Virus record (IMG/VR): IMGVR_UViG_2681813205_000018
Span: 1 to 9,671 of that record
DNA length: 9,671 bases
From: a virus
Taxonomy: Duplodnaviria; Heunggongvirae; Uroviricota; Caudoviricetes
Direction: 5' to 3' (one strand)
The position numbers and the translations under genes are program-made. Under the pieces are notes generated by a model. That model saw only the letters and a list, made by a program, of their open reading frames with translations, did not search any database and was not told where the DNA came from. Every line of letters begins with the position of its first letter. Position 1 is the first letter of the stretch. Shown one piece after another: positions 873 through 9,396 of the stretch.

Positions 873-921
873 TGCCTGATGCTCGTTCCAGAAAAGGAAT
901 GCATCAGGCAGTTTTGTTTTT
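873..921 (+). terminator. Candidate intrinsic terminator after higBA
   Basis: 10-bp inverted repeat TGCCTGATGC (873-882) / GCATCAGGCA (901-910) with inner TTCC/GGAA pairing, followed by GTTTTGTTTTT. Lies between the convergent higA and repressor genes; the 3' arm overlaps the repressor stop codon. Confidence 0.45.
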
Positions 922-1296
922 CTGCCGCAGTAACTCTTCAAGTTTCCGTTTATAGAAATCGCGTTTTTGCTCCATATCACGAATGATCTGCTCTGCGTCG
1001 CTTTGAGGTAACTCATCTAAAAGCGATATGATTTTTCGTTGTTGTTCTGTAAGTTGCGGTTGGTTGTCATTACTGGATACAGCCATTTTATCGCCGAGAG
1101 TTTCTTCTTCCATAAAGAACCAATGGACGGGATGTTGTGAGAGCTCTGCTAATTTTTCCAGTTTATCCATTCTTGGCATCACGCCTTTCAACCAACCTTG
1201 CACGGATTGGGGTTTTACACCAAGACGTCTTCCCAGCTCTGACTGGTTTATATTCAATTCCTGCAACACCTGCTGAAGGCGTTTTACAAAGATCAT
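904..1296 (-). CDS. Prophage repressor, Cro/CI-type HTH (RacR-like)
   Basis: Minus-strand ORF. ATG at 1294-1296 is preceded by GAGGGG; the track start at 1302 is a GTG. N-terminal HTH QSELGRRLGVKPQSVQGWLKG and a charged helical C-terminal tail resembling RacR-type repressors as I recall them. Divergent from the cro-like gene. Confidence 0.7.
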   Translation of the reverse strand: MIFVKRLQQVLQELNINQSELGRRLGVKPQSVQGWLKGVMPRMDKLEKLAELSQHPVHWFFMEEETLGDKMAVSSNDNQPQLTEQQRKIISLLDELPQSDAEQIIRDMEQKRDFYKRKLEELLRQKNKTA

Positions 1297-1338: not shown

Positions 1339-1395
1339 TTGATAAGTGGCATTACAAATAGAAGTTGAAATTTAAATTTAAATTTGTAATTATCG
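1339..1395 (+). promoter_or_regulatory. OR-like operator/promoter region of the immunity switch
   Basis: Intergenic region between the divergent repressor and ydaS-like genes. Palindromic half-sites TTACAAAT (1352-1359) / ATTTGTAA (1382-1389) around an AAATTTAAATTT core. Candidate rightward promoter: -35 TTGAAA (1365-1370), -10 TAATTA (1387-1392). GGAGGG RBS at 1413-1418 precedes ATG 1423. Confidence 0.4.
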
Positions 1396-1422
1396 GTGTC
1401 ATCGTAAAGTTCGGAGGGAAAC

Positions 1423-1683
1423 ATGCAAAAAAGTACTCAAGTGAAAATCCTGTCAATAATGAGCCAATCAGAATTAGGGCGTCGTCTTGGTAAAACACCG
1501 CAAACCATAAGTGGGTGGTTTAAAAAACGAGTGCCAGCGGAGGAGGTTATACCAGCATGTGAGGCGCTTGACTGGGGAGTAACTCCGCATGAATTGCGCC
1601 CTGATAAATACCCTAATCCAACCGATGGTTTACCTGTTGAGTATCAGGCTAACGCACAAGCAGCGGCGGGAGTTGATTCATGA
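1423..1683 (+). CDS. ydaS: Cro-like HTH regulator, YdaS family
   Basis: 86-aa ORF with a strong RBS and an HTH (SQSELGRRLGKTPQTISGWFKK). Occupies the cro position, divergent from the repressor. Its stop overlaps the next start (ATGA at 1680-1683). Confidence 0.75.
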   Translation: MQKSTQVKILSIMSQSELGRRLGKTPQTISGWFKKRVPAEEVIPACEALDWGVTPHELRPDKYPNPTDGLPVEYQANAQAAAGVDS

Positions 1684-2117
1684 AAATCAAGCATGAGCAC
1701 ATCCGCATGGCGATGAATGCGTGGCTGCTTTATCCGAGGGTAGGGCGCAAAAAAATCGCTGATGATATAGCGACAGCATATTTTGAGCTTGAAATGACTT
1801 ATCCACCAATGCATGACACCTCTACGACAGAGGGTATTGGATTGAACATACAAAATATTTTTCGCTGGCTTGAAAAGGATACGCCTGATGCTGTTGAAAA
1901 AATTCAGGCACTAATTCCAGCTATCCTGACTGTTCTTCCGCGTGAACTGCGTTATCACCTCAGTATTTTTGACACTGTTGAGCGCCGTGCATTACTGGCG
2001 GCCCAGGAAGCGTTGAGCACGGCAATTGATGCGCATGATGATGCAGTCCAGGCAGTTTACCGGAAAGCGTATTTCAGCGACGGCGGGTCATCCGGCGAGT
2101 CTGTTGTGGTGCATTGA
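1680..2117 (+). CDS. ydaT: YdaT-like protein (cII-position, Rac prophage toxic protein family)
   Basis: 145-aa ORF translationally coupled to the ydaS-like gene. N-terminus MKIKHEHI and C-terminal RRALLAAQEALSTAIDAHDDAVQAVYRKAYFS match my recollection of E. coli Rac YdaT. Confidence 0.75.
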   Translation: MKIKHEHIRMAMNAWLLYPRVGRKKIADDIATAYFELEMTYPPMHDTSTTEGIGLNIQNIFRWLEKDTPDAVEKIQALIPAILTVLPRELRYHLSIFDTVERRALLAAQEALSTAIDAHDDAVQAVYRKAYFSDGGSSGESVVVH

Positions 2118-2203
2118 TATTTATGCCAGACCCCTGCTGATTCTGTTGATTGGGGAATCACAGAATATCACCAGAGGATGGTTCGTCACAAGATGAGGCA
2201 ATT

Positions 2204-3214
2204 ATGGCCGCATTACCATACATGCAACTGTACATAGCTGATTACCTGGCTGACACCATGCATTTGTCCGCAGAGGAGCACGGTGCGTATTTGTTGCTGA
2301 TGTTCAATTACTGGCAAACAGGGAAACCAATACCTAAAAACAGGCTGGCAAAAATTTCCCGTCTGACTAACGAGCGATGGGCTGATGTGGAACCATCCTT
2401 GCGGGAGTTTTTTTGCGATAACAGCGATGAATGGGTGCATCTTCGGATTGAGGAAGATCTGGCATCAGTCAGGGAAAAATTGACCAAAAAATCAGCCGCC
2501 GGAAAAGCATCTGTTCAGGCCAGAAGAAGCAGAAAGGAAGCATATGTTCAAACAAAACAAGAGAGAGATTTAACAGGTGTTCAAACAAATGTTGGTGTTG
2601 TGTTTGAACATGACGCAAACACAAAAGCAACTAATAAAGATACAGATCTAAAAGAATTAAACCCCACACATAACGTGCGTGAACGCGAGAGTATTCCGAC
2701 CAGTGAGTCGCATGGTGCGCCGTTGCAGACAGCCGAACCTGAATACCTGGACGGCATGAGCGAACCGATCGGGAAATTTTCGATGACTACTGTCTGGCAG
2801 CCGTCGCCGGATTTTCGACAACGGGCAGCAGTGTGGGGTATGGCTCTGCCTGAGCCGGAATTTACACCTGCTGAGCTTGCCGCATTCCGGGATTACTGGA
2901 TGGCGGAGGGGAAGGTTTTCACGCAGGTTCAGTGGGAGCAGAAATTTGCCCGCCACGTGCAGCACGTCAGGGCACAGGTAAAACCAGTCAGCAAGGGGGT
3001 AAGCCATGCAGCATCAGGTGGCACGGCATCACGGGCAGTTCAGGAAATCCGGGCAGCACGCGAACAGTGGGAACGTGAAAACGGATTTATCAGCAACGGA
3101 AACGGCCTGGAAGCTGTGGGAGCTTATGGGGGAGGTGTATTCGAACCGCTGGACTCAGAAGAACGGGGCCGCACCTTCGAAGCTCTGGATTGCCCAGATT
3201 GGTGCGATGACTGA
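2204..3214 (+). CDS. ydaU: Replication initiator, O-like (YdaU/DUF1376 N-terminal domain + DnaT-like C-terminal domain)
   Basis: Frame of track ORF 2150..3214, which starts at a TTG. Chosen start is ATG 2204 (MAALPYMQLYIADYL) with GAGG 7 nt upstream. N-terminal DUF1376-type domain, a low-complexity linker, and a C-terminal FTPAELAAFRDYWMAEG segment resembling the DnaT DNA-binding domain. Immediately precedes the P-like gene. Confidence 0.7.
   Translation: MAALPYMQLYIADYLADTMHLSAEEHGAYLLLMFNYWQTGKPIPKNRLAKISRLTNERWADVEPSLREFFCDNSDEWVHLRIEEDLASVREKLTKKSAAGKASVQARRSRKEAYVQTKQERDLTGVQTNVGVVFEHDANTKATNKDTDLKELNPTHNVRERESIPTSESHGAPLQTAEPEYLDGMSEPIGKFSMTTVWQPSPDFRQRAAVWGMALPEPEFTPAELAAFRDYWMAEGKVFTQVQWEQKFARHVQHVRAQVKPVSKGVSHAASGGTASRAVQEIRAAREQWERENGFISNGNGLEAVGAYGGGVFEPLDSEERGRTFEALDCPDWCDD
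2545..2610. repeat. Candidate origin iterons inside the O-like gene
   Basis: 10-mer TGTTCAAACA occurs directly at 2545 and 2578 and inverted (TGTTTGAACA) at 2601, followed by an A-rich stretch (2615-2660). Lies in the inter-domain linker of the O-like initiator, as ori-lambda lies within O. Confidence 0.3.
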
Positions 3215-3668
3215 ACAGCAAATCCGTCTGGTCTGCCGTCAGTGCATGGACCGCTGCCGGGCGGGTGAAACGTGGCCCCCGGACCTGGCTGAGTTTGTTG
3301 CGCTGATTTCGGAGAGTGGGGCAAATCCATTTGGTCTTACGGTGGATGCCGTGATGGAAGAGTACCGGCGCTGGCGCAATGAATCCTGGCGATACGACGG
3401 GAGTGATAAATACCCGTGGCCACAGCCTGTGCTGTACCACATCTGCCTCGAAATGCGTACCAGAGGGATTGAGCGCCAGATGACGCAGGGTGAGTTAAAA
3501 CTACTTGCAGAACGGCAACTGACGAAATGGGCAAAGCATGTTGGTAACGGGATGAGTGTTCCGCCAGTGCGACGACAACTGGAAGGGGCGAAACACCCGC
3601 AAGGGCCAACGCCAATTGAGCGGCTGAAACAGGAATACGAACGCCGGAAGGCAGCTGGTTTTATTTGA
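3126..3668 (+). CDS. Replication protein P-like (DnaB helicase loader)
   Basis: By-eye alignment to lambda P as I recall it: PPDLAEFVA vs PSPGQFVA, YPW motif, and a C-terminal LT..EL...A...L.......G...P.PV.Q pattern. Start is uncertain: ATG 3126 (GGGAG upstream) is chosen; ATG 3006 would overlap the O-like gene by about 200 nt; ATG 3207 overlaps the O stop. Confidence 0.6.
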   Translation: MGEVYSNRWTQKNGAAPSKLWIAQIGAMTEQQIRLVCRQCMDRCRAGETWPPDLAEFVALISESGANPFGLTVDAVMEEYRRWRNESWRYDGSDKYPWPQPVLYHICLEMRTRGIERQMTQGELKLLAERQLTKWAKHVGNGMSVPPVRRQLEGAKHPQGPTPIERLKQEYERRKAAGFI

Positions 3669-3701
3669 ATCTGAGAAACGATTTTGTCGGAGGAAATTTT
3701 A

Positions 3702-4418
3702 ATGGAAACCGTATTTGACGCACTGAAAGCACTGAAAAGAGCCTCTTCACAGGTAGTGGCGGCCCGCCTTGGAATCAGCCGTGAAGATGCGGTCAACGAA
3801 CTGTGGAAACTGAAGCGCCGCGGTGAAGCGGATAACAAGGGGTCGATGTGGTGGCTGATTCAGGCTGGTGAAAGTGAACCGGTGTCACCGGTACCGAAAG
3901 TGACAGCGCAAATGCTGACTGAGGCGATTGAACAACATGGCCCACAAACGGCGGATGAGCTGGCACTGATGTTCGGGATTACCTCCCGCCGGGCGAATTC
4001 ATCGCTGGCCATGGTAATCAGCAAAGGGCGTCTGATTCGCGTGAATCAGGGCGGTAAATTTCGTTACTGCATACCGGGCGCTGATTTACCGGCAGAGCCG
4101 GAAGCTGCATCCGTAGCGGAAACCGATGGTAAAGCCTTTCCTCAGCCAGCAGGTGTTGCGTTACCAGCTCGGGAAGCAGAAACACAGGAAGAAATAAAAA
4201 CGGAAAGTGTGGCGGTCACAGTGCAGTCACAGCCGTCGTTCACCAGAAAGCATCCGGATGGTCTGATTTTACCATCGCTGCATGTGGCTAACCGCGAGCT
4301 GCGCCGGGCAAAAGGTCAGGTTCAGAAGTGGGAGCGAGTCTGCGCCGCGCTGCGGGAGCTGAACAAGTGCCGGGATATTCTCCGGGATATTACCGCCACC
4401 AGAGAACAGCAGCGGTGA
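3702..4418 (+). CDS. Hypothetical phage protein with two winged-helix-like segments
   Basis: Track ORF 3684..4418 starts at a TTG. ATG 3702 has GGAGG 7 nt upstream. Two HTH-like stretches ([20 protein letters not shown] and [22 protein letters not shown]). Family not recognised. Confidence 0.55.
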
Positions 4419-4450
4419 GTGGGTGGAAGACGTGGTGCCGGGCGGAAATC

Positions 4451-6531: not shown

Positions 6532-7872
6532 ATGATCAAAGAGACTGTTACGATGAGTCATAAGGAACTCCACCGACTTCAGATTATTCAGGAGTCAATT
6601 AATCGACATATTACTCAGGAACAAGCTGCGGCACGCATTGGCATTTCTATTCGGCAGGTTAAACGTCTGGTGCAACGGTATAGAAATGAAGGGCCTTCTG
6701 GTCTGGTTTCCCACCGACGTGGAAAGCGTCCTAATAATTCCTTTTCTACTGAATTCAGAGCAACAGTAATTTCACTCCTCAAAGGCCGTTACGCTGATTT
6801 TGGACCTACGTTTGCGTGCGAAAAATTGCGCGAGATACACGGTTTATCTTTATCCGTTGAAACTCTCAGAAAGTGGATGATAGAAGAGGGGTTATGGCGT
6901 GAACGCCGTCGTAAAATTGCCCGTATATATCAACGCCGCATGCGACGACCATCTTACGGTGAACTGATCCAGATTGATGGCTCACCTCATGACTGGTTTG
7001 AAAATCGAGGCCCCAGATGTACACTGATCGTTTTCATTGATGATGCCACCAGTGCGTTGATGGCGTTGCGTTTTGTGCCTGCTGAAACAACCCGGGCTTA
7101 CATGGAAACCCTCCGGGGTTACCTTGATGATCATGGCGTACCGCTCGCTCTCTACTCTGATAGACACAGTATATTCAGGGTAAATAACCCAGAGCGGGAA
7201 GGTGAGCTGACCCAGTTCACTCGTGCGATAAAGACACTGGGCATCGAGCCAATCCATGCCAACAGCCCGCAGGCAAAAGGGCGGGTAGAGCGCGCCAATC
7301 AGACACTACAGGACAGGCTGGTCAAAGAAATGCGGCTTCAGAATATCAGTGATATTGAAACAGCAAATGCATGGTTGCCGACCTTTATTGAAGCCTATAA
7401 CAACCGGTTCGCTACGTCGCCTCGTACTACTGATAATGCTCATCTTGATGTGCACCATTCTGAAGAGGAACTGGGTTATATCTTCAGCCTACAGGCGAAG
7501 CGCGTTCTGTCTAAAAATCTCACTTTCCAGTACAAAAGCAGTGCGTTTCAGGTACGCAGTGAGGGCCGGGGATATCGACTTAGGCATTCGGTTGTTACTG
7601 TATGCGAGAACTTTGACGGTGAAATTAACGTTCTGTATGACGGGAAAGCGCTGGGCTGGGAAAAGTATGTTGATGGCCCGGAGCCTATACCACTGGATGA
7701 TGAAAAGAGTGTCCATGAACGAGTGGATAATGCCCGTATTGATTTACGCTCAAAATACTATGTTAAACCTAAAGCTGACCATCCCTGGCTTACGCGCCGA
7801 ACGCAAAGTCATCAGCAAGTTAAGCCCCCGAAGTTACCTAAAAAGAAGCCTGATCCCGATAAAATAGATTGA
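6532..7872 (+). CDS. DDE transposase, IS481/ISNCY-like (rve integrase core, N-terminal HTH)
   Basis: 446-aa ORF. N-terminal HTH (ITQEQAAARIGISIRQVKRLVQRY). Catalytic triad candidates in LIQIDGS, LYSDRHS and AKGRVERANQ with integrase-like spacing. Pattern resembles IS481-family transposases (IVFIDDATS..., PQAKGRVE). Alternative start ATG 6553. Confidence 0.8.
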   Translation: MIKETVTMSHKELHRLQIIQESINRHITQEQAAARIGISIRQVKRLVQRYRNEGPSGLVSHRRGKRPNNSFSTEFRATVISLLKGRYADFGPTFACEKLREIHGLSLSVETLRKWMIEEGLWRERRRKIARIYQRRMRRPSYGELIQIDGSPHDWFENRGPRCTLIVFIDDATSALMALRFVPAETTRAYMETLRGYLDDHGVPLALYSDRHSIFRVNNPEREGELTQFTRAIKTLGIEPIHANSPQAKGRVERANQTLQDRLVKEMRLQNISDIETANAWLPTFIEAYNNRFATSPRTTDNAHLDVHHSEEELGYIFSLQAKRVLSKNLTFQYKSSAFQVRSEGRGYRLRHSVVTVCENFDGEINVLYDGKALGWEKYVDGPEPIPLDDEKSVHERVDNARIDLRSKYYVKPKADHPWLTRRTQSHQQVKPPKLPKKKPDPDKID

Positions 7873-8272: not shown

Positions 8273-8806
8273 ATGCCAGGTACTAGGTGTGTTACTGTTC
8301 TTACTGCTCGTGGAATTACTGAGATTTTAAAAACAGGTGGAAGCAAAGCCTGGAGACTCAATGCAACCCATGCAGGAAAATGTTCGTATGTTGTTTGCGT
8401 TCAGAACTCGAAGATTGATTGGGGAACCCAGGAGGCAAAGCATCACCATGCTTTTATGATTGGCCGTATTTCTGGGATTAGCAGGATTCCAGACCATCCC
8501 AAGAAGCGTTGGATAATCAACATTGATTCTTATGCTGAGATTGATATCCCTGACCAATGGGATGGAAACCGGAATCCGGTTTCTTACCGAAACCTTGAGG
8601 ATATGGGGATAGATCTTGATACTCTCGATTTTAAACCTGTTGGTCATATTGTATCTGGAATAAAACAGACTAGTGGTGACGAATACGATGAGTATGAAGA
8701 AGTTGATGTCAGCGATAGACCTTTAAGCCTGAAAGAAGCTAAGGCTGGTCTAGCACTTCATTTTGGCGTCAATGAGGATGACATTCAGATCACTATTAAG
8801 GGGTGA
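8273..8806 (+). CDS. Hypothetical protein (unrecognised family; first gene of IS-flanked cassette)
   Basis: ATG 8273 with AGGTGG 5 nt upstream; the track start at 8264 is a GTG. 177 aa: basic N-terminal domain of about 120 aa, acidic linker (DEYDEYEEVDVSD), short C-terminal segment (LSLKEAKAGLALHFGVNEDDIQITIKG). AT-rich codon usage unlike the flanking phage genes. Confidence 0.6.
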   Translation: MPGTRCVTVLTARGITEILKTGGSKAWRLNATHAGKCSYVVCVQNSKIDWGTQEAKHHHAFMIGRISGISRIPDHPKKRWIINIDSYAEIDIPDQWDGNRNPVSYRNLEDMGIDLDTLDFKPVGHIVSGIKQTSGDEYDEYEEVDVSDRPLSLKEAKAGLALHFGVNEDDIQITIKG

Positions 8807-8811
8807 CCTTT

Positions 8812-9396
8812 ATGGAATCATTCTCTGTTGAGCATTGGTTACCACAGGCTACTGCTGGAGATAGTCAGGCTAGATTTTATTTGGGGAAGATATTCTCATG
8901 CGGGCTGGGTGTTCATCAGGATTATAAGCTGGCTATATACTGGTTTCAGCTTGCAGCGGAGCAAGGCCATGATGATGCCCAGTTTAATCTTGGGTGGGTA
9001 TATCATTTGGGGTTAGGTGGATATAAACATGTCCAAAAAGCGTCTGAATGGTATCAGAAGGCCGCTCTGCAAGGTCATGCAGAGGCTCAGTTTCATCTAG
9101 GAAGGCTGTATGCTTTCTCTTATTTAAGAAATGATGGGCTTGCAGTTGAATGGTTTCTCTGTGCCGCGAAGCAAGGCTATAGTAGTGCGCAATTTAAACT
9201 TGGCTGGATGTATCATCTCGGTATGGGCGTTGAGCAAAGTGACAGGCAGGCTTTCCATTGGTTTATTCGGGCTGCTGAGCAAGATCATGCAGGGGCTCAG
9301 GCATCTCTTGGTGAGATGTATAAGCATGGGTGGGGAGTCGAGCAAGACGAAACGATGGCACAGTATTGGTTTCGACTCGCAAGAACAATGCCATAG
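8812..9396 (+). CDS. Sel1-repeat (TPR-like) protein
   Basis: ATG 8812 with AAGGGG 8 nt upstream, 5 nt after the upstream stop. At least five tandem Sel1-type repeats (e.g. AIYWFQLAAEQGHDDAQFNLGWVYHLGLG; ASEWYQKAALQGHAEAQFHLGRLY; AFHWFIRAAEQDHAGAQASLGEMYKHGWGV). No signal peptide evident. Confidence 0.8.
   Translation: MESFSVEHWLPQATAGDSQARFYLGKIFSCGLGVHQDYKLAIYWFQLAAEQGHDDAQFNLGWVYHLGLGGYKHVQKASEWYQKAALQGHAEAQFHLGRLYAFSYLRNDGLAVEWFLCAAKQGYSSAQFKLGWMYHLGMGVEQSDRQAFHWFIRAAEQDHAGAQASLGEMYKHGWGVEQDETMAQYWFRLARTMP

Follow-up and report, generated by a model that had tools for sequence, protein, structure and literature searches.

The repeat array and the A-rich tract in the initiator gene

The stretch of DNA analysed here (the window; 9671 nt, IMG/VR record IMGVR_UViG_2681813205_000018) is the early-right region of an Escherichia coli lambdoid prophage, in which genes for a repressor, a cro-like protein, a YdaT-like protein, an initiator and a P-like loader form a series. 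The initiator, a protein of 336 amino acids (aa), consists of a DUF1376/YdaU N-domain, a linker and a DnaT-like C-domain, and the DNA encoding its linker carries an array of short repeats followed by an A-rich tract. We consider this region, 2545-2660, to be probably the replication origin of the prophage, placed inside the gene of its own initiator; origin activity is inferred by analogy with lambda O and P and from the homologies described below. The features on which the argument is built are the following:

2204-3214, plus strand: initiator gene, 336 aa, with DUF1376/YdaU N-domain, linker and DnaT-like C-domain
2216-2464, plus strand: coding part of the DUF1376 domain (aa 5-87; PF07120, 90.6 bits against a cut-off of 30.1)
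2545-2554, plus strand: repeat R1, TGTTCAAACA, a near-palindrome TGTT-CA-AACA
2578-2587, plus strand: repeat R2, TGTTCAAACA, 33 bp after R1
2601-2610, minus strand: repeat R3, TGTTCAAACA, the top strand reading TGTTTGAACA, 23 bp after R2
2545-2621: array of 11 AACA/TGTT half-sites, made up of R1-R3 and partial sites at 2556, 2572, 2590, 2596 and 2618
2612-2660: A-rich low-stability tract GACGCAAACACAAAAGCAACTAATAAAGATACAGATCTAAAAGAATTAA, candidate unwinding element, 57% A and 14% T on the top strand
2634-2661: module junction; the N-module, 1896-2661, is common to Rac-type prophages and the C-module, from 2634, to O157 prophages
2753-2983, plus strand: coding part of the DnaT-like, single-stranded DNA-binding-type domain (aa 184-260; PF17948, E 2.8e-17; NCBIfam region; PDB 6aep/4ou6, E about 1e-20)

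Three copies of TGTTCAAACA, two direct and one inverted, followed by an A-rich tract had been named in the original prediction, and they were recovered at these positions and beyond chance. In dinucleotide-preserving shuffles of the whole window, with 10-mers counted on either strand, no 10-mer reached three copies without overlap in a span of 70 nt (0/1000, shuffle maximum 2), and elsewhere in the window there was no further match to TGTTCAAACA with one mismatch permitted. The R1-R3 region also ranked first among all repeat clusters of the window in an unbiased 9-mer scan (one mismatch permitted), which picks up the annotated lambda ori iterons as a positive control, and the same repeat region was again the top cluster in the Rac locus of E. 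coli K-12. The 10-mer is itself a near-palindrome of the form TGTT-nn-AACA, and R1 and R3 can be extended to 16-nt arms (2544-2559 and 2596-2611) that are 94% complementary. While three repeats and an A-rich stretch are thus present, the extent of the element proved larger than predicted and comprises an array of about 11 half-sites: the 95 nt from 2533 to 2627 contain 11 AACA/TGTT half-sites against 1.1 expected (p = 1e-8), and the runner-up 95-nt stretch in the whole sequence contains six. The repeat sites lie at gene offset 342-407, and together with the A-rich tract they correspond to aa 114-152, between the end of the DUF1376 helix (aa 109) and the DnaT-like domain. No perfect DnaA box was found in the window, and the closest ones with a single mismatch, at 1799 and 4283, lie well away from the array.

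The A-rich tract lies in a region where the GC content goes down to 0.33 (2550-2649). In stability, its segment 2621-2660 ranks fifth from the bottom among all 40-mers of the window and, as the four weaker ones are all intergenic, last among the coding ones. The tract contains a single GATC, at 2645, and its form is kept in relatives as AACTAATAAAGAT(A/C)CAGAT...GATCTAAAAGA. A terminator scan returned a weak minus-strand hairpin at 2663-2683 that is not above the shuffle expectation. The reverse complement of the tract is GATCTGTATCTTT and has two mismatches to the oriC 13-mer GATCTnTTnTTTT, judged by eye. The 9-mer ACACAAAAG stands after the last repeat, at the start of the A-rich tract, both in the window (2619-2627) and in lambda (locus L030, 1121-1129), which is maybe a coincidence.

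The gene identical to the initiator gene is named "DUF1376 domain-containing protein" in RefSeq, and PHROGs labels such proteins "primosomal protein" or "replication initiation protein". An AlphaFold2 model of aa 1-110 (pLDDT 90.5) has a winged helix that leads into a long basic helix reaching aa 109 (nt 2530), and the DUF1376 domain is the presumed reader of the repeats. Only the C-terminal single-stranded DNA-binding domain matches DnaT, the full-length equivalog NF002770 scoring 94.6 bits against a cut-off of 201. The location of the repeats in the linker was predicted correctly, whereas the description of the initiator as O-like applies to its position and architecture and not to homology. 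The initiator had no match to the lambda O family PF04492 (Phage_rep_O), which lambda O itself matches with E 5.7e-36, and no sequence similarity to lambda O in a BLASTP comparison (E 3.2); with DUF1376/YdaU and DnaT-like domains in its place, we ruled out that it is a lambda O homologue. The following gene, at 3207-3668, does belong to the lambda P family (PF06992, E 4.9e-15; phrog_109; BLASTP against lambda P, 2e-5).

Repeats within a compositionally biased linker might be due to chance or to codon repetition, and R1 and R2 indeed share a frame, each of them coding for V-Q-T. This explanation is hardly credible, since it is rejected by the shuffles and by codon resampling, R3 is inverted and encodes V-F-E-H, and copies in relatives are out of frame. 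When the peptide AYVQTKQERDLTGVQTNVGVVFEHDANTK was held fixed and synonymous codons were redrawn according to local usage (20000 samples), 3.2 +/- 1.3 half-sites were obtained with a maximum of 9, and three TGTTnnAACA in 0/20000 samples. Shuffling of the codon order gave 11 half-sites in 0.015% of the trials and three palindromes never. In the Rahnella relatives, the repeat copies are spaced by 11 bp and hence fall in different reading frames. Codon resampling, the inverted R3 with its other residues and the Rahnella copies in different frames therefore indicate that the repeat sites are selected at the DNA level and imposed on the codons, and are not a by-product of coding. Within the Rac type, common polymorphisms affect 0/30 positions of the three 10-mers vs 21/128 in the remaining linker (p = 0.0085). 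This sample consisted of 41 haplotypes, many of the loci being decaying cryptic prophages, and the avoidance is not significant at threshold 2, so that its support is modest.

Natural mosaics and distant relatives

Three kinds of E. coli prophage share parts of the initiator gene in different combinations. The N-part and linker of ydaU from the K-12 Rac prophage are 94.3% identical to window positions 2204-2661, and all three sites are found at the same offsets (342, 375 and 398) though the flanking bases differ; the predicted K-12 sites are located at MG1655 1,421,511-1,421,576. Homology stops at 2661, beyond which ydaU has an unrelated C-terminus and is followed by the DnaC/IstB-type loader gene ydaV. 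Conversely, in a prophage of O157:H7 strain TW14359 (WP_001262402) and in the UTME-9 prophage the C-half of the initiator is 96% identical from aa 151, and the TW14359-type locus continues with a P-like loader and then DUF1627 after the initiator, as in the window. The N-domain of the TW14359-type initiator is unrelated to that of the window and has no Pfam match. Exactly at the position of the TGTTCAAACA sites, this gene has five (A/T)GTCACGAC repeats with a spacing of 10-11 bp, and these (GTCACG) repeats abut the same kind of A-rich tract, GATAAAGATACAGA...GAATTAAACCCC. A second cluster, of four (A/T)GTCACGAC copies, is situated within the N-domain coding region of the TW14359-type gene; the clusters are at 1656-1716 and 1937-1986 of the TW14359 locus (L028) and likewise in the UTME-9 locus (L029).

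In a BLAST comparison of the window with the fetched loci, at least 60 IMG/VR loci show a homology block that stops at 2661, and in O157-type loci the blocks start at 2634, from which it follows that the modules are joined within the A-rich tract. Taken together, the comparison of K-12 Rac, the window and O157 and the breaks at 2661 and 2634 indicate that the repeats go with the N-domain and not with the C-domain or the loader. In lambdoid O genes, the repeats likewise go with the initiator N-domain. We regard the natural mosaics as what appears to be the strongest evidence for reading the region as an origin.

More distant relatives have a related array of another sequence. Fourteen enterobacterial genomes (54-83% N-domain identity) and the Pseudomonas phages UFJF_PfDIW6 and AH02 contain 7-10 AACG/CGTT half-sites, in arrays whose gene offset is the same (about 320-420) and with p values of 1e-4 to 1e-7; the genera include Citrobacter, Kluyvera, Enterobacter, Klebsiella and Rahnella. 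These arrays are often CCGTTCAACGG-type palindromes or direct 11-bp repeats and are followed by a AACTAATAAAGAT..CAGATCTAAAAGA or a (GATACA)n tract. AACA/TGTT takes the place of AACG in the E. coli Rac type and in Citrobacter braakii, where no AACG is present, and three loci are mixed. About ten half-sites have therefore switched their fourth base together, which is hard to explain except by a DNA-level function that co-evolves with its reader. Seven positions of the N-domain distinguish the AACA from the AACG type. Residue 84 (window 2453-2455) is Asp or Glu in all AACA-type loci and Arg in all AACG-type or mixed loci, which makes it a candidate specificity residue, though only a lead. When the 9-mer scan was run on relatives, it singled out the linker in the Rac type, in Rahnella and in the lambda control alone, and operator-like or unrelated repeats in the other genera. 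It misses the linker in the other genera because the sites are short and degenerate, and the informative measure in relatives is the half-site count. The original prediction would have been contradicted by repeats that reflect codon repetition only and are not conserved in related prophages; this was not the case, as the relatives either keep the sites or have changed them in a concerted way.

The GATACA hexamer, which encodes Asp-Thr, occurs in one to five tandem copies among relatives (L019, offset 411-440; L112, offset 380-410; L014; L012). In locus L015, three AAAGATCT units stand in place of GATACA, and their reverse complement resembles the oriC 13-mer GATCTnTTnTTTT, again by eye.

Interpretation as a replication origin

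All sequence-based predictions that we tested held, and they support the interpretation of the region as an origin. We propose the following mode of action. Upon derepression, the rightward operon would be transcribed through the initiator gene and the initiator would be made. Its N-terminal ~110 residues, the winged helix and the basic helix, would bind, probably as dimers, the dyad-symmetric sites at 2545-2621, which are spaced by about 2-3 helical turns. Together with supercoiling and transcription, the nucleoprotein complex so formed would then open the A-rich tract at 2612-2660, upon which the DnaT-like domain may capture the single strand and/or dock the P-like loader, which would bring in host DnaB. 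The A-rich tract would also act as microhomology for the exchange of N-modules (reader and sites) and C-modules (DnaT-like domain and loader).

In ori-lambda, iterons within the O gene are followed by a top-strand A-rich tract (PMC5043065). The predicted likeness to this layout was borne out: in both cases the origin, a candidate one here, lies inside the initiator gene, with the iterons in the linker at similar offsets (349-433 in O, 342-407 here); dyad-symmetric repeats about two turns apart precede an unstable A-rich tract of ~40-50 bp on the coding strand; the initiator gene is downstream of cro and the cII-position gene in a rightward operon, with a P-family loader next; and the repeats travel with the initiator N-domain, with a caveat for the T5orf172-bearing relatives discussed below. 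Unlike in lambda, the initiator is of unrelated sequence and has a DnaT-like C-domain, three 10-bp sites and half-sites take the place of four 19-bp iterons, and the origin function in the window is a prediction from sequence. In functional terms, this analogy suggests the ori-lambda design re-built with non-homologous parts, which is mechanistically unsurprising.

The Rac prophage has been reported to carry an active origin, oriJ (PMC3945230). K-12 Rac, with ydaU-ydaV and oriJ, resembles the window in its N-domain, in the three sites and in the A-rich tract, where identity is 94% and the gene offsets agree, and differs in the C-terminus of YdaU and in having the DnaC/IstB-type YdaV, against a DnaT-like domain and a P-like loader here. 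The candidate origin of the window is almost certainly of the same type as that of K-12 Rac, and the element is probably Rac oriJ, an ordinary kind of element. The O157:H7 DnaT-like initiator (TW14359, WP_001262402) has the same C-half, tract, P-like loader and DUF1627 gene, with repeats before the tract, and differs in its N-domain and in having (A/T)GTCACGAC repeats instead of TGTTCAAACA. No sequence family is shared with the winged-helix initiators of iteron plasmids (staphylococcal RepA_N, PDB 4pta) or with DnaD-type replisome organisers. Plasmid iterons are usually bound by monomers and lie outside the rep gene.

Several observations weigh against the origin reading or parts of it. There are only three perfect sites of 10 bp each, compared with four iterons of 19 bp in lambda. 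The primers described by De Paepe et al. as "framing oriJ" (PMC3945230) map to K-12 ydaV, ~650 bp past the repeats; they give a 155-bp product inside MG1655 ydaV (L001, 5241-5395), a segment in which no repeat cluster and no AACA/TGTT half-sites were found, and the ydaV gene is absent from the window. The switch between the A and G types is essentially one evolutionary event, so that its covariation with protein residues is anecdotal. Furthermore, DUF1376 relatives with an inserted T5orf172 domain (best tblastn segment 54-75%, with 74-75% for L020 and L023) are without an AACR array. They represent a third architecture, DUF1376 plus T5orf172/MUG113 plus DnaT-like (L020, L022, L023 and L026), in which T5orf172 is inserted before the DnaT-like domain, and they have arrays of CTACG/CGTAG (GTAGCTACG-type) palindromes in the T5orf172-coding part, at offset ~370-680 and ~25-fold above background. 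Because these relatives carry CTACG/CGTAG in the place of an AACR array, DUF1376 is possibly not the sole, or not the actual, sequence reader; the reader may exceed the fold or be replaced in the T5orf172 lineage.

An unlikely alternative is that the array is a real protein-binding cluster and not a replication start, for instance an autoregulatory or copy-control site or the site of another phage or host protein, with the true origin elsewhere, such as in or near the loader gene. The location of the published oriJ amplicon in ydaV would fit this, and the second GTCACG cluster in the N-domain coding region of the O157-type gene implies that not every such cluster need be an unwinding site. However, in the window and the K-12 locus alike, the 9-mer scan gave no second repeat cluster and the half-site count no second array, the array is conserved though the loader is of the DnaC type in K-12 and of the P type in the window, and an A-rich low-stability tract always stands directly after the array, as in origins.

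It appears highly improbable that the region is a recombination joint only, in which A-rich microhomology serves module shuffling and the repeats are functionless passengers. The dozens of loci in which the edge of a homology block falls at 2634-2661 agree with a joint, but a joint at the origin is also predicted by the origin model, and the codon choices that build 11 half-sites, the concerted change from AACG to AACA across genera and the O157-type gene's own, independent set of repeats at this place would all be left unexplained. Marginally less probable still is a role at the RNA level, where R1 and R3 would pair in the mRNA and the hairpin would affect how well the initiator message is translated or how stable it is. 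In the predicted fold of the RNA of 2535-2635, an R1:R3 hairpin forms at -21.8 kcal/mol (z = -2.3, with 4/200 shuffles folding as well), a modest z-score that follows automatically from any inverted DNA repeat. Moreover, Rahnella (L019, L021) and the O157 type have direct copies only, which shows that pairing is not the conserved property, and the relatives showed no compensatory changes by which the pairing would be maintained while the site sequence is altered. The fold of the repeat region as single-stranded DNA (z = -2.3) was not informative.

Returning to the origin reading, a broader proposal can be offered tentatively, as one that we find slightly easier to doubt than to believe. DUF1376 would be the origin-binding winged-helix domain of a widespread family of phage initiators, from enterobacterial prophages to Pseudomonas phages, with the origin always in the linker of the initiator's own gene. 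The switch from AACG to AACA, along with that from Arg84 to Asp/Glu and a few other residues, would represent co-evolution of initiator and origin, readable as a recognition code, and the A-rich or (GATACA)n tract would be both a universal unwinding element and the recombination joint at which unrelated reader-plus-site modules are plugged onto the same DnaT-like/P-like loading module. In a literature search, we found no paper mapping an origin in a DUF1376 gene. DUF1376/YdaU, still of "unknown function", gains a testable role as the origin-recognition domain of a phage initiator. For Rac-type prophages, an origin prediction at the nucleotide level becomes available, including K-12 oriJ at about MG1655 1,421,511-1,421,626. 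The three-way natural mosaic constitutes a ready set for specificity swaps, with the same reader and different loaders and with the same loader and different readers plus sites. Such prophages are common in Shiga-toxin-producing E. coli (STEC), in which induction and gene dosage are influenced by how efficiently the prophage replicates.

Gene order and further observations

Nucleotides 1400-4000 of the window are 100% identical to prophages in O26, O103 and other STEC strains. The remaining features of the region are:

193-857: HigB/helix-turn-helix (HTH) toxin-antitoxin pair
904-1296, minus strand: HTH repressor, leftward
1365-1393, plus strand: promoter-like site in the divergent repressor/cro-like intergenic region (consensus match only)
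1423-1683, plus strand: Cro/YdaS-like gene
1680-2117, plus strand: YdaT-family gene in the cII position
3207-3668, plus strand: helicase-loader gene of the lambda P family, PGAP start; a longer in-frame open reading frame (ORF) begins at 3006
3684-4418 (PGAP: 3702-4427): DUF1627 gene

The promoter-like site at 1365-1393 could drive the rightward operon (cro-like, YdaT-like, initiator and P-like genes) through the candidate origin. The ORF from 3006 for the P-like protein would overlap the last 69 codons of the initiator by 209 nt in another frame, and the phrog_109 alignment of the P-like loader begins at residue 11 of this long form. Matches to the family phrog_15931 (482 positions) were obtained with aa 93-335 of the initiator and also with the P-like protein, which suggests fused or frameshifted versions of initiator and P-like protein elsewhere.

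Strain E2865 is identical to the window over 1400-4000 and diverged after ~4400. The genes for the HigB-family toxin and the HTH antitoxin-like protein (148-857) directly adjoin the prophage repressor gene, and their place is taken by a RelE/RelB pair in the UTME-9 relative (L029). The ORF at 6532-7872 encodes HTH_28/HTH_29 and rve_3 integrase-core domains and represents an insertion sequence (IS) transposase, and a Sel1-repeat protein is encoded at 8803-9396.

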